Assembly: GCA_963924565.1 (NCBI GenBank)
Contig: OZ004609.1
Coordinates: 26,102,001 to 26,166,000 of the forward strand
Source: Ascidiella aspersa
Lineage: Eukaryota
DNA: 64,000 nt
Direction: 5' to 3'
Part shown: positions 8,201 to 60,878 of the stretch, piece by piece
Layout: every line of letters begins with the position of its first letter
How positions within the stretch are numbered: position 1 is the stretch's first letter
Translations under genes and position numbers: made by a program
The notes under the pieces: generated by a model
Databases searched by the model: none
What the model was told of the DNA's origin: nothing
The model's input: only the letters and a program-made list of their open reading frames with translations

Positions 8201-11077
8201 ATTTATTGGTATTGTGTAGTATGTTCACAGTTTAACAAAGACTGAATTTGTACACTGTTTTTAAAAGCATATTTTTGCCGCAGGTTTGTGTTGAGTGCCA
8301 CAAGAACTTCTACAGGATCTTCGACGTCACCGAACTCACAGGGTTGCGACGTCACATGACGTCACGAACCTGTGACGTGTGCGATGGCAAGCTCAGGGAC
8401 ACGATCGTACATTTCGGGGAACGTAGTGCTCGTCAGTGAGTTAAAAGTTCCAACAATCTTGCAAAAGTAGTTCTCTTTTTCATGACTTTTATTTCGGCCA
8501 TCCTGCCATTTATTTACCTTCTCCAATTTCTAATCTGCCATATTAATAGTTCTGATTTGAAGAACATTTACGCTATAATATCAAAACAAAGCTAAACCAT
8601 ATTAAACTTTCGATAACTGTTTTTGTTTCATGTGTAATGCTTACTGACAGACATCTGGTTGAAACCCGAATGCTTTTAACGGGTATATTACATTTGGCCT
8701 CAAAAGAACCAAAGCGCTATTTAGTGGTGTCATTTTTCAGTGATCAAAGTCTGTCCACTTGAAACGTGGTGACTGACCAATGACCATTCTATTGAGATAT
8801 TTTACCTCCCTAATTAGAAATAAAATTTTCAGCGTGTTTATTGTCGCTTTATTGCCTCTCAGTCCAGTTTTTTATGTTTGTCTATAAAACCACGGGTTCC
8901 GTTTTGTCACATTTTATGTTTCATTTTTCTGTTCTTACGGGCCACTCCATTTTGTTCGGCAGCTGGCCGCATTTTTGGGAGCAGGCTGAAAAACACGCCC
9001 AAGAAGCTGATCTAGTTGTTTGCCTTGGCTCAAGTTTAAAGGTGCTCCGTTCCTACAAGCAACTGTGGCATGCCGACAGGTATTACCTTGTTGGCAGGGA
9101 TTCACATCAATTGTTCACACATTTTATTGGTTTATAAATAACCTAACTCCATTCATCCAAGTTATTTGTTTGATAAGGTTTACAACTTTACTTGGCCTGG
9201 ACTTTTTGCATCTACTTCCTTAAAAAAAAAATTTTGCTTGTGGTACGTTCTATTTTGAATTCATTTACAGCGTAATGGATAGTTGTGGTCAGATTGGAAT
9301 AAATGCACCAAGAGATTCTAAAACAGGCCAACATATATTAATGTTATGGAATTATCTAGCGGTTCTACTGCGAGAGGTTGCCCGCGGCCCCTGAGCCCCC
9401 GTGCTCTAGTGACGTATTCCTAATTATTTATTGTGTTGTGGGATGGTTGTATTGCGATATAAATTACGCGACTACTCGTTTATAAATGCTAGTAAAATTC
9501 TTGTATTATACCATTTTAAACCATTTGCGTATTTGGACTCTGTTTTTATTTTGGCAAGGCAAACAGCAAGGGTGGCGCAAAATCGTAAAGCGTTCCTTGT
9601 TAAGAAAAAGAGTTAAGACACACAACATCCCCTTCTTACTGTAAAATAGGTGAACCAAACCAAAACTTGACTAATAATAAAGATTTTTTGAACCAGCTGT
9701 GTTTTAATGTTGCTACAGCGCACCATTCACTAACATTCGATTTAAAAGCCTACTTTCGTTCGCACAGACCAAAGAATCAACGTCCCCGCCTCTACATTGT
9801 CAACATGCAGTGGACGCCCAAGGATTCACAGGCCCACCTAAAGATAAATGGTTGGTGATTTCCTCATTATGTCGCCTGCGTGTCAATTTTTCAACGTAAT
9901 TAGGAAACACTTCACGGCGTACTCTTGCTGGGCGTTCTCGTTAACCAATACACCTCGTGCTTTCCCAATAATGGCTTTGTGCAGTATGTCGTGCAACAAA
10001 TTTTCCGAGAAATTGTTTTAAATGAGATTATACTTTGGCCGCCGTTTTGATAGTATTAATCCCGGTCGAGTCACCATTTTCGTTCTTGCGGAATTGTTGC
10101 TGTGGCTAGAAGATTTGGACAAACCACAATACTTCTCACACTTTTTTAAACATTACCTAAAAGAAACTGTTAGAATTTTAACAAGGTATTATTTATGTTA
10201 ATGTAAACTTTTTCTGGTTTGATATATCGATTGTTTGTATGTGTTTGAAGGACGTTCTGATGAAGTCATGCAACAAGTGATGTTACATTTGGGTCTAAAC
10301 GTAGACGGTTACCAACGGTAAGCGCATGTTATTTGTAATGTTGTTAGTTTTTGCAATCGGCAGTGATTTGCAATCAATTTAAACAAATATCTAGAGTCGG
10401 ATTTTTCCTTTAATACTTTTTTTCCTTTAATAAAAAAAATTTGACTTCCTAAAATTTACACAAACCCTTTCCTAATACTCAACGCATACATATAAAATTA
10501 TACGACAATATCACGTTGCTAAACTGATGTTGGCTCTGTACACCAACATTGTATGCTCAGCGTGGTTTGCTTTAGTCATTTAAGACCGGGCTTACTTTGG
10601 CCAAAGTCGTAGAGTACTGTCTTGTATATAGTTAAACAAAAACCTTCGAACAACGTTCCTAGTCTTGTTCCCCATTTGGCATCATATTAAGTACGTTTGT
10701 ATTACTACAATCTTCGGCCGTGGTTCTCCGAAATGCCTGGTGTTTTTAGCGCGAACGATACCCTTCTCAATCTCGCCGCTCCCGTGCAAGCTTCGGAACG
10801 CGAAAGTTTCCGAACGCTATGCATCAGCGTTCCGCCCGACTGCACCCGCTTCGCCGAGTGCTCGACGCGACTAAACACCCGAAAAGTCGCCATCGTCGGT
10901 GACGATCGGACTGAGGGTGCTGACGTCGACGGAGATACGTCACCTGACTTGGAAGAGCTAGCCTCGGCGCAGTCGTCGTCGCGTGACGTGGTGGTTCCGG
11001 GCTGGTTCGGCAAAGGCCGACGAAAAGCCATGCCGCGGAAAACCCTCAAGAGACGGAAAAAGAAAATCCGTGACTAG
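5031..11077 (+). CDS. SIRT7: NAD-dependent protein deacylase sirtuin-7 (class IV sirtuin), 9 exons, 474 aa
   Basis: Exons 5031-5225, 5412-5543, 6323-6503, 7181-7350, 8284-8435, 8963-9079, 9768-9850, 10251-10317, 10750-11077 total 1425 nt in consistent phase. Motifs: [27 protein letters not shown], catalytic HG, zinc ligands [36 protein letters not shown], and the SIRT7-type C-terminal GWFGKG plus a basic NLS-like tail. Confidence 0.95.
5226..5335 (+). repeat. Tandem repeat (21-26 bp unit, GTATCCTTACCATTT core) at the start of SIRT7 intron 1
   Basis: Copies start at 5226, 5251, 5272 and 5298, followed by a partial copy. Confidence 0.9.
5412..5543 (+). CDS. SIRT7: SIRT7 exon 2
   Basis: tttcag|ATT AGA...AAA GAG|gtttgt; basic helix [16 protein letters not shown]. 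Confidence 0.85.
6323..6503 (+). CDS. SIRT7: SIRT7 exon 3 (NAD-binding GAG motif)
   Basis: acacag|GTG GAA...ATG G|gtatgt. Confidence 0.95.
7181..7350 (+). CDS. SIRT7: SIRT7 exon 4 (QNCDGLH and catalytic His)
   Basis: tttcag|AC CAG...GCC GAG|gtgagg; [33 protein letters not shown]; missing from the ORF track. Confidence 0.95.
7409..7778. mobile_element. Degraded hAT-type MITE relic in SIRT7 intron 4
   Basis: cagaggttctcaat...ggggtcc...gttgtaaaccacta resembles the CAGTGGTTCTCAAC/GTTGAGAACCACTG ends seen elsewhere in the window; no clear TSD. Confidence 0.45.
8284..8435 (+). CDS. SIRT7: SIRT7 exon 5 (zinc-binding module)
   Basis: ccgcag|GTT TGT...CGT CA|gtgagt. Confidence 0.95.
8963..9079 (+). 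CDS. SIRT7: SIRT7 exon 6
   Basis: cggcag|C TGG...GAC AG|gtatta; [14 protein letters not shown]. Confidence 0.9.
9768..9850 (+). CDS. SIRT7: SIRT7 exon 7
   Basis: gcacag|A CCA...AAT G|gttggt; [15 protein letters not shown]. Confidence 0.9.
10251..10317 (+). CDS. SIRT7: SIRT7 exon 8
   Basis: ttgaag|GA CGT TCT GAT GAA GTC ATG...CAA CG|gtaagc; [16 protein letters not shown] resembles human GKCDDVMRLLMAELGL. Confidence 0.9.
10750..11077 (+). CDS. SIRT7: SIRT7 terminal exon
   Basis: ttttag|C GCG AAC GAT...TAG; [10 protein letters not shown] and [10 protein letters not shown]. Confidence 0.9.
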
Positions 11078-24000: not shown

Positions 24001-27000
24001 GAAACTTGGAAACTTATAAAAATCACCGGTTATTAACACAAATAGGCAGGCAGGCAACCGTGGGACTTGATTGCAATAATGTTAAGGTATTTACTCGGGG
24101 TTATGTCTTGCAATAATGTTAAGTCGGGGTTATATCAAGTTATAATTGTTATGGATTATAATGATAAAAATGATCCCCGCATTTTTTTTTCTTGGTGCGC
24201 CACAAGCTAAAAGGTTAGTAAAACGACTGATTTAGAGTATTCAACACGGGATCAAGGCATTAATGTCACAGTTCCTAGTCTTAAAAAACAAAACATTTCG
24301 TTAAAACTAAGCTACCACACTTTACGCGTGTGAAAGGCTTTATATTTAATAAAAATATAGTAAAAAGTTCTAAAATGGTTTCAAAGACATCGACATAATT
24401 ATGCTGATCGCACATCAGTCCCGACAGTTATGCCTTGGCATAAACCAATCAAATTCGAAACCCAGTTACGCGGACACACACCACATATAACGCACATGAA
24501 GCCCATTTTGTATATGCACAGTTTGCCTACCACCGTCGTCGTTGTGCTGCGAGTCGTCGTCATCACCGTCTTCCTTCTTGTCCTGCTGAGAGCCGCCCGA
24601 GCTCTCGTTTGAGCGGTTCTTGGGCACCCACGTCATCTTGTTCTCCTTCTTAAGGCGACGCCGGGCGTTGGCAAACCAGGTCGACACCTTAAAAATATCG
24701 AGATTTAAAGCTCGGTGTCTGTTTGACGTTTACCTGGCCGACTTTGCCGTGTTTGCTAGTGACCTAACAAAAGGCAATGTAAGGTAAACGGAGCTATGGC
24801 TAAAGCTTATAGCTGCTATTTTAAAATTCGAACGTAGGCTGGCAACTATTGTGTGAGGTGATCGCGTCCTTCAATATAAGAGTTGTCTCTGACCTCTTGC
24901 CACAAGTTTTTATTGAGAAATGGCACGAATCAAGGTGGGTGAAGAGTTTAAAGTGGCAAATTGCTGGAGAACTGCACATCCAACGAAAAGCGGGTGGCGA
25001 AGTAACTCGAAATAAGACTTGGTGGAAATTACGTCTTTCAGTTATCTGAATCATCGTAAAAAGGTGTGAATGTGAACTTGTATCAAATAATAAATTACGT
25101 CTAAAGATATTTCAAAGTGTATTTTTTGTTACAAGGTAATGCTGTGATTTGTTACTGTACATGTTTTAACGTTTGGACGACAAAACAAAACAAAATCAAA
25201 CACAGCCCATCCCGATTAAATTTTGAAAACGGGACAATACATCTGGAAATATGCAAGGTCCATTGAGATTATATGAATGGATGTATGTTTATTTATGGAA
25301 ACCGAAATATTGACAACAAAAAAAGATTTATGTTTTTTTGGTTTTGTACGTTTTCTTTACTTATGAATATTAAAAAAAAACACAAACGTTCGTTTTTATC
25401 TGCCTATATATGTCGCCCTGACATAAACTCTTTAGACAAGGGACAGGGGAAAACAAATCTCCCTTTATTTATTTTTCACCTGGGTAAGAGTCATCTTGGT
25501 AATGATGGCGAGCATGATCTTTTCTCCCTTGGTTGGATAGGGGTTCTTCTTGTGCTCTTGCAGCCAGGTCTTGAGCGTGTTGGTCGACTCCCTGGTTGCG
25601 TTTTTCCTTCGCACCCCATCGTTCATGTCCATGCTGCAGTACCTATGGTAAACAACCGTTTGTGTACTGTGCGTTTGTAAAGAACCTAGTTGGGAACAAA
25701 CTAACGTGATATACGCGCGGCGTTGATGCGATTGTGTCGCTCTATAGTCCGAGTTAAATTAGTTAGGCGATGATCAGTCCCTTACGAGGTTTCGAGCGGT
25801 TTTCGCCTGCGGTGGCGCCTGTCAAACGAGCAGATTTGCATTTAGGTTTTGTATCAACAGAAACTCAGCTGTGAGGAAGGGCTTAAACGTGGGCCAGAGG
25901 CGGCTTTGTTCAGGAATTCGGTTTATTTACGATTGAGCGGTGGCTATTTCGGGATTTTGAGCGAACCAATTTGGCGTACACTTTAAAAGTCGTTCCGAGA
26001 AGAGCGAAAAACAAAAAAACATATTTTCAACCTCGATCTGCTCTTCGACAAAATTAACTCGAAAACTCACGAATTAGGCGCACAAATCAAAGGCGGTGGC
26101 CTCCAGGTGTGCTACAAATACCGATTAATCGGCGCGGTACGCTTTAAATTAACGTGGTCGCGTGAACGTGCGGCTGTTTTCAAGTACCGCGCCGCGGAAC
26201 TGGGCATACCTCAAAAGGTCTTCTCCTGGACTCAACATGGCTCGGCGCGCATATAAACACGAACACCCTAAGCGTAAGGTTATAACATAGGACGCAGCTA
26301 TAGGCTTTGGGTTTTCGCAGACGCGAGGATCGTCATTCGACAGCCTGTAACAAACGAAGCTTGTCTGCGTGAGGGTATGTCCGTCCGTGTCGTCGTGCGC
26401 AATCGAAATGGTAAATCCGAATACTTGCGCCACCTGAGCCGCCGCCGCTCCCCACGGCCACACAACAGCGGCGTCGGATTGTCAATAAAACGGCAGTGGT
26501 AGCAGCGGCAGCAATCAGGGATTGCCGTCAGTCAGCTATCGAGCTGCAGTGACATCACAACGGGTAATCGGATTTGGCCCGCCACACCCGACTCGCCAAG
26601 GCGCAACGGTATCGAACGACGTAAACATTTTTGGGTGTGCTCCGCGACGTGATCTCAAGGCGTTTTTATAGGCCAGGTTTGCCTTTTCGCTGGTACACTA
26701 TGCCTGCTACTAGTTTGCTTAATTGTCCTTTAGAGACCAACTGCTTGCCTTAGATTAGTGGTCTGTAAACATTTTTGTTCCGTCTCTATATTTATTAAAA
26801 TTCGGTTTGCGGCTCGTCACCTATACTGAAATGATTCGTCAACGTTTTACAGTGGCTGTAAAGGTATTCACGATTCTTTTAGCTTTAACAATGCTACACA
26901 AAAATAGATAAAACATTTTTTACTTAATTTTAGGAGTACTTTAACGCTACATAAGTTGTAAATTTCTTTGTTATGCCACTGTGGCTCACTGACCTCGTGA

Positions 27001-50500: not shown

Positions 50501-53500
50501 ATATTAAAAAGCAACAAGATGCTACAAACGCCGTAGAGTCGAAAACTTTTCGAGCAGCTGCAGCCCATTATTTAGCCTGAAGATTCAGTCAAGCCAATTT
50601 GCGGTTACGGGAAAGCACTATAGGTTTGTGTCGAAAAGAAATATTCAAGAGTTAAGTATGAAAGACAGCAGCCTCCTGATGGGTTCGTCGTTGACAAATA
50701 AAGTTTTTTCGGCGACATGAACACTTTTGCATTATTTATAAGTGGCAGCATTCATCTGACCAGCAGTCCAAAATCGGCTGCAAATGAATAATCGGACATT
50801 GGTGAAACTCTTCTTCGACCCTTCTCTTCTTGGTTATATTCGTGTTTGTGTGTGGGTTTGGGTAGTTGACCATCTAAAACCCTCAGTAATTATCCACGAA
50901 CTGCAAGTGAGATATGTTCGATGCAACAAATATGTGCAAAACATTAAAACCAGCACTAACTTTAGAGCATCGCCATATGGCCCAGTGTGGCCCTTTCGCG
51001 CAACCGCGTTCTTTGTCCGTTTTCAAAACGCGCGTCTCTCGTACCTGTCTGACCACAAAAGCGTTCCCAGTCCGTGTCCGGACTTCCTATCGACGTCACC
51101 GCCAAACGTATGCACAACGAAGTGAAAGTGAACAACCTCTTGTCAACTTGCCGCTCGAACCGAGCCAACGCGCTCCGCCATTTTGTATTTCTACAGGGGC
51201 GCGCGTGTAACGCTTTCCGGAAAATCGAGAACTAATTCCGGAAGGCCGCAACTCGCCGACGGTTTGTCTAAATCGCTTCGACTACTGTTAATTAATGTAT
51301 CTGAATCTAGCAAATTTACACCCGCTCCTGAAAAGACTGTAATCTGGGTTTCGGCACGCGATGACTAAGTTATCATAAGCGCAAGATTTCCGCCAAGCCT
51401 AACGTGCGACGACCGAAAGCTTGCAAGAAGCGACGTCGGCCGGAAGTTCCTCAAATCCGTGCCAGGGCCAGACGTCGAGTTAATGTGTTTCGAGTTCGGA
51501 GGCGCCGCGGCCAATGTTTGCCGAATCCGAAAGTGTATCCGCGGCTGCCTTTGAAGCCGGGGCGTCGCGAAGGCTTCATCCTGGTGGAGCGAGTGGCTTA
51601 TCAGTCGTTGCACGCGGCGAGGGGCGAGCATGAGCCAGCATTGAGAGGAGAAGCCCGGGTGTAGGCGACCTGCCGGTCGTGTGTGCGCAGCAGGGCGATA
51701 CATTCCAGCGCAAACACGGCTACCGCTCGCATCCGCTCGGGATGCTGAATAAGCCCCTTTATCCGCGCGAGCCTCACAGCACCACACCGGGGCCCCGGGC
51801 CAAGGAATTCGGTCCGGCTTTATCGCGCGGACATGTGTAATAAGTCGGGCGCGTAATTGTTCGGCAAATACGCCTTATCGGTCACCTCCCTCTTTATTTC
51901 GTATCTGTTGCGCCGCGCGCCCACCCGCTCTCTCGTTTTCTCGCTGGCCGCAGCCAAATTGAAAAGTGCTGAAAGAAGCCGCTTGTGCTTGGCAGCTGCC
52001 GAAGCTGCTCGCCGCTTTCGACTGCGCAGGAGACTTTCCTATATATTTGCCTTGTCGCATAATTCGCATTCTCAGTAAGGAATGACACAAGCGCTGACGA
52101 TAGCACGACCGCAGACACGAATTTCATTGGGTGATGCCAACTCGACTTTAGTTTATTTCCCGATTTTCGAAATATCGAAAACAGTGCCTGATTTGCCCCC
52201 GTAATGTAAACCCCTTACTTTCAAACATCTGTTTCCAGGTATGTCAAACGCCACTGATGAGCGACAGTTCAGTCCCTTATCGGATACCTCCCAAATGCAT
52301 TACGTCACTTTTTGGGTCCACCACTGATTCACACGATTATGTAAGGGCTTTTCTAGGAGAAATGATACTTGTAAGGGTCTTACGGCCCCAGCGATTATAC
52401 CATTAGAACTATCGTAAACAAATAAAATGCTTCATCTAGTATTTACCCGGCAACAAAGCTTACAATATAAGTTAAAATGTTAATGCTAAGTCAAGCTGTT
52501 AAGTATATTTCACTTTGTGTTATAGGAATATTATTTGGTTTTATTTGACCCTTTCATTCATACACAATTCCACGTTTTTAAATTATATTCATAATCCAAG
52601 AAAGCGACACTTTACTTAATATACAAAGCTTATTACTCTCTTTTTTCATTACTATTTTAACGACAATTTTTAGGTAACGAAACGGTTTATTTTTATTAAT
52701 GATTTTTACATTTTTTTATCAACAGAAAACAAGCCATTTATACAAAAAAATCACTCAAAACTTTGACAGAACTTTTACTGAAATTAACTGTTTAAGGACA
52801 AACAAAAGTCGAAAAAAAGTTCCCAAAAAATAAATTGTGCACAAAAATGTGATCTTCAACAGTTTAACATACCGCATAAGGCTATAATTGTGCAGTATCC
52901 TACGTCACGAAATAACCAAAGCAAACATCTATTCCATTTTCTGAAATATCACAAAATTGTAGAGTTCGGGGTACATTAGGCTAGGCTAATATCTCACATG
53001 AAACACCTGCTGCAATGACTAAAATTACAAAAACAATAGCACAAATTTTACATATTTTTCTATTAATAATCAATATCATACATAACTAAGAAAACAACTT
53101 TTCTCTATAAGACTAGAACAACTAGAATTTTTTAGCGTTTAAAATAAGATTAGAATTTTATATAAAGCTTTTCCCTTTTCTTAAATGGGATAAGAAATAA
53201 CTACCGAACTAAAACTGAAATTAAACTAAAATCTGATCCAGAATTACCTTTAATTAATTTACAGCAATTTAATAAAATCGCAAAATAATGTTCCGACTGA
53301 AAAACGCCATTGGTCAAACGAGCATATTAGGGCACAATGTACAAATTGGATTAGAATTAGAAATACTCTCACATTGCTCTATTTCGTCTAAGCAGGCAAC
53401 TGGAATTATTTGACCAGTTATTTCACTATAGCATGATTATACGATTAGGTACAGATGGCACAAAAAGCCACATCATATTGTGAAGTCAACATAACATTCA

Positions 53501-53659
53501 CGGGCCCAGTTAAAAATAGCGAATATCCAATGGCATTAAAGTTATAGGGTTCATTTTTACGTGAATTAATGGTAGCTATAGTGTTTGTTTAAAATTATTC
53601 AAATATTAAATTTTACCTTACTTCTATATTTATTTAAACATTTTAGGAAACTATTAACT

Positions 53660-53879
53660 TTGGAACACAATACACGGGTTTCTTTAGTAATTTCAATAAA
53701 AATATAAAAGCCATAATATTTGATAAAAGCGACATTTACAGACGTTTCAGCATTAACTCATGCCATCATCAGTGTAAAAAACAAGTGAAGATAAAAGCGA
53801 TTGCGATAGAGCAATGTGAGAGTATTTCTAATTGCGAAATGTCACTTTTATCAAATATTATGGCTTTTATATTTTTATT
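53660..53879 (-). mobile_element. Small Penelope/retrozyme-like insertion with an internal inverted repeat
   Basis: 13-bp direct repeat gaaactattaact (53647-53659, 53880-53892), 47-bp inverted repeat (53691-53737 vs 53837-53883, 1 mismatch) and an internal hammerhead motif. Confidence 0.6.
53735..53778 (-). ncRNA. Minimal type I hammerhead ribozyme
   Basis: Minus strand UUUACA-CUGAUGA-U-GGCAU-gaguua-AUGCU-GAAAC-GUC/-UGUAAA: 6-bp stem I, 5-bp stem II, intact core, palindromic ACGU stem III. Confidence 0.75.
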
Positions 53880-56800
53880 GAAACTATTAACTGTTCTACA
53901 ATTGTTCTCTGCTGAATTTGCTTGCGATTTGTTTCTCAAATTAAATCGCTCAAACTTATATGGAATGCAAGTGCTTAGGCCATGTACTTATAAGGCAGTG
54001 ACTTAAAAACAACCGTGATCTTTTCCCGTCTAAATATAGTGGCCATATTTAGGTCGGGCCGTTAATTATAGCAGAAGCAAAAACCCTGTTTGTTGCAGTG
54101 TGCGGCGTTCGTGTGGGCGCCACCCCGCTTAACTGCGATGACTGCATGGCACGATGATCGTTATTAAAAAAGGCCGCCATATCTCCGTGTAGCACAAAGC
54201 CGGTCTCTATACGGGCCGCACAGGGCGTGACAAAATGATCGCAGAATTCCATTTCGGGTGCGATCGCAGGCCCATTTCACCTTTCACGACTTGTTAGATC
54301 CCTGTTTGCATCTCAAACTAAATCCGTTAACTCGTGAAATCGTTCGCTTCCAACGTGGAAGGCTTTAAAAATAGATTGATAACATCAATTGCTCTTTCAA
54401 ATGGCAATTCGTGTGGTCCGAAATGTTTTTTTTTTTTTCAACTTTTCACGTAAAACTAATATAAATTTCACATTAAACTCAACCAGTGACGAAAATATTT
54501 TGGCATTGTCCAAGTACTGTTTTCAATATATGGAAACTTTTGTTATTCTGTCAAATACTGTTGCCAGACAAATATAGGATCTATCAAGATTCAATACGCA
54601 CGAGACTTAAGTATATACCGAAAACACAAGTGACATTTAATGCAAAGCACCTCAAAGAACGCAGAGCGAGACAACTTCGGCAAACTCCAAAATGATATTC
54701 AAATCAAACTTTTTATACGTCGCTAAGCAAAGAATTATAATCGTCAGTTCATGTATTCCGCTCCTCCCATGGGAAACTGATTAAGAGGTAGACACTTTTT
54801 AAGACTCATATCAATTTGGTTTCTGGTCGACATTTTACCAACTATCATTTTTGCCAGGCTGTAAGCAACATATTGACAAAAATCCAAAGAGTGCAAAGTG
54901 TGTGGTAGTACAGGCACGTTTTTACCGTACAACTGCCAATATTTAGAACTTTGTCGACGCGTCTGGACGAATTCCGCGGCATTTTCTGTCACGGCCATAT
55001 TAAAACACCGGATTTCACTCGAAAGCGCTTAATAGGTCTTTTGATGTGGCAAATTGCTTGCCCTTGATGGGACAACTGATCACAGGGCTCTTATGTTAAA
55101 CGTGTCGCCATTGACGAAAAGTTCAAACTGCCTCGGTGACCCCAACACTTATAGTTTAAAGCGCCTGTTGTATGACGTTATAATTTGTAATCAGTGATCA
55201 CGTGCCAAAATGCGGGTCGACGCCCTCTTTTGCCGCAAGGAGAAAATGCAATTAGTTAATCGTTCGCGGTCGCGTTTCGGGTTATGAGAAAAGCTAAGCG
55301 CGCTCTCCAAATATTGTTACAACCTTATAGCCTTGCCAGAACCTCGCTTTATGGTAATCGCAGTAGACTTATTTTACTTCCTGATTTTCGTTAAATAGGC
55401 CCCGAAGTGCGGTGTTTATATTTGAATAAATAACAAACGAGTTTATCATCCTATATTAATCTCGTTTGAAGTGAGCATACAACTTTTTCAGACGAGCAAT
55501 CTGCGGGGATTTTCAGAGTTTTGTTAATATACATCAGTTGTTCAACGGGTGTGATATTATAAACGCTTGCTTTGTTTTGCGGTTTCCCTATTAAATAACA
55601 TCCCAACGTCCAAAATACTAATTTGACCAAAGGTGTAATTAACGGGGGTATATTTGTGGAGTCAAGAATGGTATATCATATTTTTCGGTGAAACGCCAAA
55701 GCAACTAACAATGGGATTATATATTCCACATAAAAAGTCAAATGCCCTAATACAAATTTCGGTAACAGTAAAGCGCTATACCACTAACAAATTACTGCTA
55801 TTTTAAATGGCCGTTTCTTTTTTTTCATTTTTATCTTATACCGTAGAAATAAATGGGTGGAAAAAGGCGCCAGAAACTATAAAAAAGTGCGATTAAGCCA
55901 GGGTTTATAAAGGTCGAAAAACCGGTAGTTTTTTCATTTTTTAGCCTCCCTGTCACGATGACGCATCTAATGAACGTAATTACTCTTTTCAATTATAAAG
56001 TTATTACCTACAATTTATTTGAATAAACACCAATAGAACGATCTTAACGACCTTATTATTTGCACTCAAATAGGCGTTGCATAATTATGTAAATACTTGG
56101 AGATACTATATCGGTTGAGAAAGTTATCTCATTTCATTGTCAAAATTACCCTAATAAAACTGTCAAAATACCAAAAGGTTACCAATTCCTTGGCTGAACG
56201 AAAGTTTGCGAACTAACGGGACGAGTACAATCTGACCAAAAAGGACAAAATATAGCACGAAACGAAATTTAGGCGAACGTATTCGTTATGGTACCGACCC
56301 TCGAACTGGCTGCTGGGATAGATGTTGCATCGGTTATTTCATCGTTTGTATGTGCGTTTTTATATCTTTGGTTTATCGTTTGTAGGCCTACGTGTGTTGT
56401 TCTTTTCACTCTTTTTTCTCACTCACGTAGATTTTCCTTTTCTCACTCACGTAACGCTTTTCCATTTTTGCACTTCAAATGTTCACGCTTTATTTCTTAT
56501 CTTATCACGATTTCCGTTGGCACCTCATAATTAGTTATAAATTGGCACACCAGTTTTCATTTCGTTGTGTTATCCGAGCAAACCTATGATGGCTGTCGGG
56601 TTTGGGGAGAGAGCTTGTATAACATTAGGAGCCTTTGTAATTGACGTTTTCTGCCCATTTTTTAGACGCTGGCCGTTTCAGGTATTTCGTTGTTCGACTT
56701 ACAGTTCGCCTATATAAATACAGTTTAAAGACACTTCGTGTAACGCTTGGCATCCGACAGGCCGTTTAGTATAGGGATCGTGCAGTTTGGCGTAAGATAG

Positions 56801-60397: not shown

Positions 60398-60878
60398 TGG
60401 ACAACTAGATTTATTTTGGCTTTTTAAAATTAGATTAGAATTAGACCATTTCAGTTTTTACAAATTAGATTAGAATTAGAAGTAGATCATTTTACTTTTC
60501 TCGAATTAGATTAGAATTACCGAATTCTTCAAAAAATAAATTTCCACTACAATTTAACTAGAACTAGCATACATTTAATTATTCACAATCAATCTAATTT
60601 AAATCGCGAATAATTCTAATATGAAAGTGAATGATAAATAAATATGTATGTGCTAATTTGTTACCCTAATTGACAAAGCAATGCTTTTTAGACTGTTGAA
60701 ATTACATACAAGCCGTTCCAAACAAAGAGCTTTAATCCAAATTCTTTGTTTTGACTGAGAGACTAAAATACCGCCGTAAAGTAGAATTTTTGGTAAAATC
60801 CGAATTAGATTAGAATTAGAGAACACGCATTTTGCTTTAATTCATTGAATTAAAAAACTAGAATTATTTAGTTGTCCA
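60398..60878. mobile_element. MITE-like element with AATTAGATTAGAATTAGA sub-repeats
   Basis: Terminal inverted tggacaacta/tagttgtcca; four internal aattagattagaatta copies (60428, 60463, 60504, 60804); a related degraded copy lies at ~53110-53415. Confidence 0.65.

Follow-up and report, generated by a model that had tools for sequence, protein, structure and literature searches.

A 233-base insertion in the window (the whole 64-kb stretch of Ascidiella aspersa DNA analysed here, to which all coordinates refer) is a 5′-truncated copy of an endonuclease-positive (EN+) retroelement of the Penelope/Poseidon type. It belongs to a family of dispersed copies, the longer of which carry reverse transcriptase (RT) and GIY-YIG domains next to the same hammerhead ribozyme (HHR); it is bounded by a target-site duplication (TSD), is missing from an empty allele and contains at its internal junction 28 nt derived from its own flank. 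The best joint explanation, to which we give a probability of about 0.85, is a truncated and polymorphic Penelope stub with a 13-bp TSD, built from two cDNAs that were probably primed at either end of a staggered cut and then united by end joining, and carrying a hammerhead predicted to be inert.

The insertion and its empty allele

In the alignment of reads to the locus, the empty allele runs from position 53646 directly to 53880, skipping 233 bases; 13 letters at this joint agree with either side. It is found in four raw DNA reads from three starts in run X7, about 1% of which was sampled, and in one contig of 2035 bases in X1. The contigs of X2 end at 53659 and start at 53880 exactly, a heterozygote pattern that would hint at the filled allele. 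Since the empty allele is seen in reads and in a contig, the exact 13-bp direct repeat at 53647-53659 and 53880-53892 is a true TSD, as an earlier note on this DNA had proposed when describing a young retro-insertion and suggesting a search for the empty site. It also follows that the insertion is polymorphic, that the 4-nt element overlaps at both ends are real target sequence, and that the donor of the junction insert is older than the insertion. Between 53200 and 53646 the empty allele of X1 differs from the window by five substitutions and two gaps in ~450 bases, which indicates a high allelic diversity. The parts of the locus are as follows:

53355..53382, plus strand: single-copy flank DNA from which the templated insertion was copied, spanned by the empty-allele contig with no differences listed
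53647..53659: TSD copy at the element 3′ (tail) end; its four element-proximal bases also fit the element template
53660..53801, minus strand: tailed arm, comprising the terminal ~150 nt of the element (tail and 3′ portion of the pseudo-LTR, pLTR)
53660..53690, minus strand: Penelope tail of ~30 nt, on the tailed arm only, of the type described in PMC8557442, PMC3846280 and PMC11167929
53660..53735, minus strand: open frame from the ATG at 53735 through the tail and into the TSD, likely the first ~26 codons of the element ORF
53733..53734: private 8-nt deletion between short direct repeats, directly 3′ of stem I of the hammerhead
53802..53805: 4-nt linker with the same letters that the tail-less arm has at its end
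53806..53833: 28-nt templated insertion that repeats the flank at 53355-53382 in inverted orientation; its final 4 nt (53830-53833) are common to the tail-less arm
53830..53883, plus strand: tail-less arm, which repeats element positions from about -85 to -32 in inverted orientation and lacks the hammerhead core
53880..53892: second TSD copy, four bases of which overlap the tail-less arm

Read along the minus strand, the order is thus TSD (53892-53880), tail-less arm (53883-53830), 28-nt insert (53833-53806), linker, tailed arm (53801-53660) and TSD (53659-53647). The inverted repeat of the window is the overlap between the tailed arm and a second, tail-less copy of the element 3′ end: segments 53684-53737 and 53837-53890 match over 54 nt with 94% identity, and include the 47-nt core, with one mismatch, from which the inverted repeat was first recognised. 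Two features had been overlooked in that description, the inverted flank copy and the private deletion. The 28-nt insert matches the flank perfectly in inverted orientation, and genome-wide only donor and insert match it; the 4-nt linker next to it is likely an aborted first join. Compared with another copy of the family (L003), the tailed arm shows two substitutions and one 8-nt deletion, the latter exclusive to the window locus among loci L001-L110, whereas reads from other copies retain the 8 nt.

An open frame running from just 3′ of the hammerhead through the tail fits an ORF that begins within the pseudo-LTR, and the ATG at 53735 is likely that start by analogy with the elements described in the available text of PMC11167929 and PMC3846280. 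The frame extends by further shared codons in copies L096, L100 and L090. The first two have ~16 common in-frame bases past the usual tail end, likely a glimpse of the missing 5′ part of the ORF. A short repeat motif of the ATTAGA type at 53343-53365 lies next to the donor of the insert. It is found again in the flank of locus L025 and, at 60.4 kb (60429-60519), in a 41-bp tandem, and is perhaps another small repeat family.

The hammerhead motif

Positions 53778-53735 of the minus strand read directly as a minimal type I hammerhead motif, whose letters, stems and core, as originally described, were all verified in the window:

53778-53773 paired with 53740-53735, minus strand: stem I, 6 bp
53772-53766, minus strand: CUGAUGA box
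53765, minus strand: extra U between positions 9 and 10.1
53764-53760 paired with 53753-53749, minus strand: stem II, 5 bp, with a G-U closing pair
between 53741 and 53740, minus strand: predicted cleavage site, after GUC

The 3′ side of the motif is GAAAC-GUC, with a palindromic ACGU and no loop 3. The core elements CUGANGA, GAAA and UH are all present together with stems I and II, and so are the extra base between 9 and 10.1 and the palindromic 15.2-16.2 positions by which minimal hammerheads of Penelope-like elements (PLEs) are recognised in the available text of PMC4209133. The usual, though not absolute, G10.1-C11.1 pair is G-U in the window copy and family-wide, so that the motif is filed as a variant. 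A strict descriptor, the kind of search proposed for this motif in the earlier note, matched once (53778-53735) in the whole 64-kb window, against a mean of 0.01 matches in shuffled windows and any match in one of 100 shuffles. A looser core-only pattern gave two matches, a number reached by 12 of 100 shuffles and therefore not significant, and an Rfam scan of 52500-55000, also proposed at that time, returned no match at E≤10. In folding calculations, the minimum-energy structure of the 44-mer differs from the hammerhead (-10.4 vs -7.3 kcal/mol). Stem I pairing amounts to only 2-9% in a context of 351 nt, a value of little information since it is lower still in a single-arm control copy, and the two-copy cofold, a method uninformative here, gave no dimeric hammerhead. 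Inside the pseudo-LTR, an 11-nt direct repeat (53722-53732 and 53790-53800) flanks the hammerhead on both sides.

The G-U closing pair had been read as possible CpG decay of a G-C pair in the window copy. In the same context, 137 exact matches in the genome carry U at position 11.1, none C and two A, and only one of 93 sampled arms has C there, which makes G-U the state of the family and speaks against decay in this copy. CpG decay in the family ancestor is possible, because a second hammerhead family has G-C at this pair. This second and more diverged family (L111-L116 and L118-L130), with G10.1-C11.1, accounts for most of 107 pattern matches. Covarying stems, which had been anticipated in other genomic copies, are found between the two families, where 6 of 11 pairs, spread over both stems, are changed on both sides, with the weak statistics of 11 hand-picked sequences and in effect one event per pair.

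The element family and its longer copies

A search of the genome with the unit gave 847 candidates, the best 40 of which were scored, with matches on nine contigs, and a 32-nt core pattern gave 137 exact matches genome-wide against none for the control. These core matches do not equal a number of insertions, because one single-armed stub was copied together with its flanks, at 85-98% identity, within segmental repeats close to the ends of contigs C2-C5, and its duplicates (L057-L064, L076-L079, L081 and L131-L133) inflate the copy counts. The 30 loci fetched have a constant 3′ end and are truncated at varying points on the 5′ side.

Directly upstream of the hammerhead, and on the same strand, an RT domain (RVT_1) was detected in L034 (E 4.2e-9) and, below the Pfam cut-off, in L005 (E 9.6e-6), and a GIY-YIG domain in L032 (E 3.6e-7) and L005 (E 1.7e-5). 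These longer copies carry, upstream of the 3′ pLTR, RT followed by a C-terminal GIY-YIG; all three are frameshifted or truncated, and this region is absent from the window copy. Other copies, and in some of them broken RT/GIY-YIG sequence of the kind that the earlier note had proposed to look for, were thus found, in agreement with its assignment of the hammerhead to a Penelope-type retro-insertion. Judged by eye, the linker between RT and endonuclease (EN) in the translations of L005 and L032 has no Zn-finger-like CxxC, a motif present in Neptune and Nematis according to the available text of PMC8557442; by the criterion of this source, the sequence points to the Penelope/Poseidon clade. Further traits of that clade are found as well: the hammerhead lies within the pLTR, and copies have a 30-40 bp tail at one end, an inverted 5′-truncated copy and a TSD. 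A PDB sequence search with the RT-EN fragment gave no matches.

Among the best-scoring candidates there was neither a full-length copy nor a pLTR-ORF-pLTR tandem, the longest body being ~2.1 kb in L033. Searches for a source copy with an ORF query, with the 5′-most piece, by tail run-on, and at two same-strand pairs near contig ends all ended without a full-length element. Because no full-length or tandem copy was found, we infer the source RNA.

The locus had also been described as a ~220-bp non-autonomous unit, that is, a discrete ribozyme-bearing element, retrozyme- or MITE-like, which would move as such. The insertion is indeed compact and non-coding, with its own TSD, a long inverted repeat and a hammerhead. 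However, its arrangement is absent from all other fetched loci, its junction is unique in the genome, and arms and junctions vary from copy to copy, with arm lengths from ~30 to >1600 nt and longer copies reaching into RT/GIY-YIG. Moreover, Tandem Repeats Finder detected no array at the locus, and no same-strand pair lies within 1 kb among the 100 of the 137 core matches listed. The proposal is largely refuted by these observations and we consider it hardly tenable. A MITE or other fixed non-autonomous unit was rejected on the variable arms, on TSDs of 9-14 bp rather than of fixed length and on the unique junction, and a non-LTR retrozyme on the absence of a head-to-tail tandem of hammerhead units in the window and among the listed core matches.

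Arm geometry and the mechanism of integration

Work in vitro with the Poseidon protein of the anole, a predicted dimer, indicates in the available text of PMC11167929 that it cleaves and extends both strands and uses two start sites bounding the tail. The geometry of the arms in Ascidiella was compared after removal of duplicates by their 3′ flank (L043 and L069 were dropped as further duplicates), loci without a match being dropped, L005 reclassified from the longer fetch L031, and the arm end of L021 set by hand. Among the 53 independent two-armed insertions, with the 3′ ends outward, 41 have a tailed and a tail-less arm, one has two tailed arms, two have both arms tail-less and nine have an arm ending elsewhere. 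Of the 44 insertions with arms ending at the two start sites, 41 thus have exactly one tailed arm. Tail sequence was the selection criterion for two of the four samples; the other two were tail-blind, and there 16 of 18 insertions are mixed (p 0.0007 against an expectation of 0.5). Among 36 two-piece loci, the arm extending further 5′ is the tail-less one in 25 and the tailed one in 11, so that neither is consistently nested in the other. Of 40 mixed loci, 29 have a TSD of 9-14 bp, most often 12 bp. In mixed loci the mean overlaps between target and element are 1.6 and 2.3 nt, vs 0.4 and 0.5 by chance, values inflated by the choice of the longest match and, on the tail side, also by the tail-pattern sample and by same-copy template extension. 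Of 37 junctions, 16 overlap, nine are blunt and 12 have inserts; the window copy is the only one with a long flank-templated insert. At one locus with two tailed arms (L006:1380-2080), 120 bases or more of the flank itself are present as an inverted duplicate, which would reflect either inverted duplication at a later time or the repair of a break at an insertion.

Priming from both ends of the target is the mechanism we consider the more probable, and it is preferred to fold-back because of the 41/44 one-tailed insertions, the occurrence of either arm as the longer one and the 28 nt of flank DNA at the window junction. In this mechanism, the GIY-YIG nuclease of the element would cut both target strands 13 nt apart, and the two 3′ overhangs would each pair over ~4 nt with the element RNA, at the tail end in the first case and ~30 nt inward of it in the second. 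Both paired overhangs would prime cDNAs that stop early, the tailed one after about 150 nt and the tail-less one after about 54 nt. At its free end, the tailed cDNA would then briefly copy the other end, snap back on its own flank ~270 nt away, copying 28 nt, and anneal by 4 nt to the other cDNA, in a synthesis-dependent microhomology-mediated joining. Two cDNAs from two overhangs would in this way be joined head to head, as suggested by the counts together with the available text of PMC11167929. The hammerhead would be a passenger of the pseudo-LTR; in the same source, the Poseidon hammerhead needs protein and is dispensable for insertion in vitro. In general terms, Penelope integration would be two-ended and asymmetric, with tail-end priming on one strand and priming ~30 nt inside on the other, 2-4 nt of RNA pairing and head-to-head alternative end joining, a generalisation towards which we lean slightly. 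In the titles and abstract openings of the openly accessible literature searched, we did not find this asymmetric two-ended model stated.

Some observations count against two-ended priming. A long flank-templated insert is present in only 1/37 junctions, and within an insertion subfamily variants are mostly common to both arms (22 shared non-majority states), as fold-back would also give. Moreover, the use of start sites is alike on both strands in vitro (PMC11167929, available text), which does not predict the one-tail asymmetry and for which the two-ended model does not account. The alternative, proposed for rotifer Penelopes in the available text of PMC3846280, is that the inverted arm arises by self-priming (fold-back) of one strand, with a later, asymmetric loss of sequence from the middle of the palindrome. 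It is favoured by the shared variants and by the 25 of 37 junctions that are blunt or overlapping, but the nesting of arms goes both ways (25 vs 11), though later palindrome deletions could mimic this. In the window, the tail-less arm retains bases deleted from the tailed arm, target overlaps of 4 nt occur at both outer ends, and the junction contains target-flank DNA, which indicates that it was made at the target site. In two other loci (L066:1437-1606 and L067:1452-1598), the tailed arm consists of the ~31-34-nt tail alone, joined to a longer tail-less arm, a layout hard to obtain by fold-back. Altogether, we regard self-priming as unlikely. With odds a little better than even, the window copy, for which there is an empty allele and which contains 28 nt from its own flank, would be a direct footprint of the joining step, and as such argues against self-priming of the inverted pLTRs. 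Its value lies in offering a clean case for how Penelope-like elements finish integration and why their inverted ends have a one-sided tail. Thanks to the empty allele the target is known exactly, and the counts across the family (a single tail, non-nested arms and end overlaps) stand as predictions for the in vitro Poseidon system.

Ribozyme activity and the neighbouring homeobox gene

One neighbouring exon of the window is of interest here, and, judged by its motif, presumably belongs to an Irx gene:

25465-25758, minus strand: Irx-type homeodomain exon (Homeobox_KN, E 5.5e-10)

The insertion lies ~28 kb from this exon; the most distal of the candidate exons is ~19 kb away. Downstream of the homeobox gene, the exon at 8814-9137 (plus strand) matches SIR2 weakly (E 0.027, below the cut-off) and possibly belongs to a sirtuin gene.

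The idea that the ribozyme could cut transcripts running towards Irx, acting in cis as a regulatory RNA cutter or terminator, accords with the location of the insertion on the same strand as the homeodomain exon, with its intact core and with a stem II that is one pair better than the family majority. Against it stand those distances and the absence of the insertion from other alleles. According to the available text of PMC4209133, moreover, a single minimal hammerhead shows no cleavage in vitro and dimers show low cleavage. The strict descriptor found no second hammerhead in the 64-kb window to serve as a partner, and the inverted arm is without the core; given this and the behaviour of single motifs in PMC4209133, the hammerhead of the solitary non-coding stub is predicted to be inert. 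That of the parent element probably cleaves only as a dimer or with the help of protein. In one RNA run (X8, ~6% sampled) the depth is zero in both flanks of the insertion, and the X8 reads on the element come from other copies, since they continue into other sequence. A role in cutting Irx-bound transcripts is thus unsupported and, in our opinion, highly improbable.

Comparison with known systems

Taken as an element, the window copy is unremarkable, one among many Penelope stubs; both its layout, including the inverted tail-less copy of the 3′ end, and its type of ribozyme have been published. In the available text of PMC3846280 and Fig. 2 of PMC8557442 there is a close likeness to Pen2a/Pen2 of Adineta vaga, which share the inverted truncated pLTR, a one-sided tail of ~31 nt, TSDs of about 9-14 bp, a pLTR including the ORF start and a heavy 5′ truncation. 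The window copy differs from them in having no ORF body and two very short arms, and in the flank-templated insert at its junction, for which the available text on Pen2a/Pen2 contains no mention.

With the Poseidon element of Anolis carolinensis (PAc), as presented in the available text of PMC11167929, the family shares RT with a C-terminal GIY-YIG, a pLTR hammerhead near the ORF start, a tail bounded by two start sites and AT-rich targets. In contrast to PAc, for which both strands used the start sites alike in vitro, insertions almost always have one tailed and one tail-less end, and the likely ATG of the window copy is located just 3′ of the hammerhead instead of in stem II.

The hammerhead itself resembles the minimal HHRs of metazoan PLEs (PMC4209133, available text) in its conserved core, the extra base between 9 and 10.1, the palindromic 15.2-16.2 positions and the lack of loop 3, as well as in its genomic occurrence as dispersed single copies and close opposite-strand pairs. 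It departs from them in the family-wide G10.1-U11.1, where G-C is highly conserved, and from the Schistosoma motifs in the lengths of helix II (4-5 bp vs 7-8 bp) and helix I (6 bp vs 4-5 bp). Non-LTR retrozymes, as far as the available text of PMC7229834 and bioRxiv 10.64898/2026.07.22.740005 describes them, are likewise PLE-related, non-coding and AT-rich, with type I hammerheads; those, however, are head-to-tail tandems with canonical hammerheads, whereas the window holds a single minimal motif in a head-to-head insertion.

Finally, the junction is similar to the snap-back insertions of synthesis-dependent microhomology-mediated end joining (SD-MMEJ) by polymerase theta, as reported in the available text of PMC5728401, in that the insert forms a new inverted repeat with the flank and ends in a microhomology. 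It differs from them in that the joined ends would be those of cDNAs and that the donor is ~270 nt away, and the polymerase of the snap-back copying could be the element's own RT.
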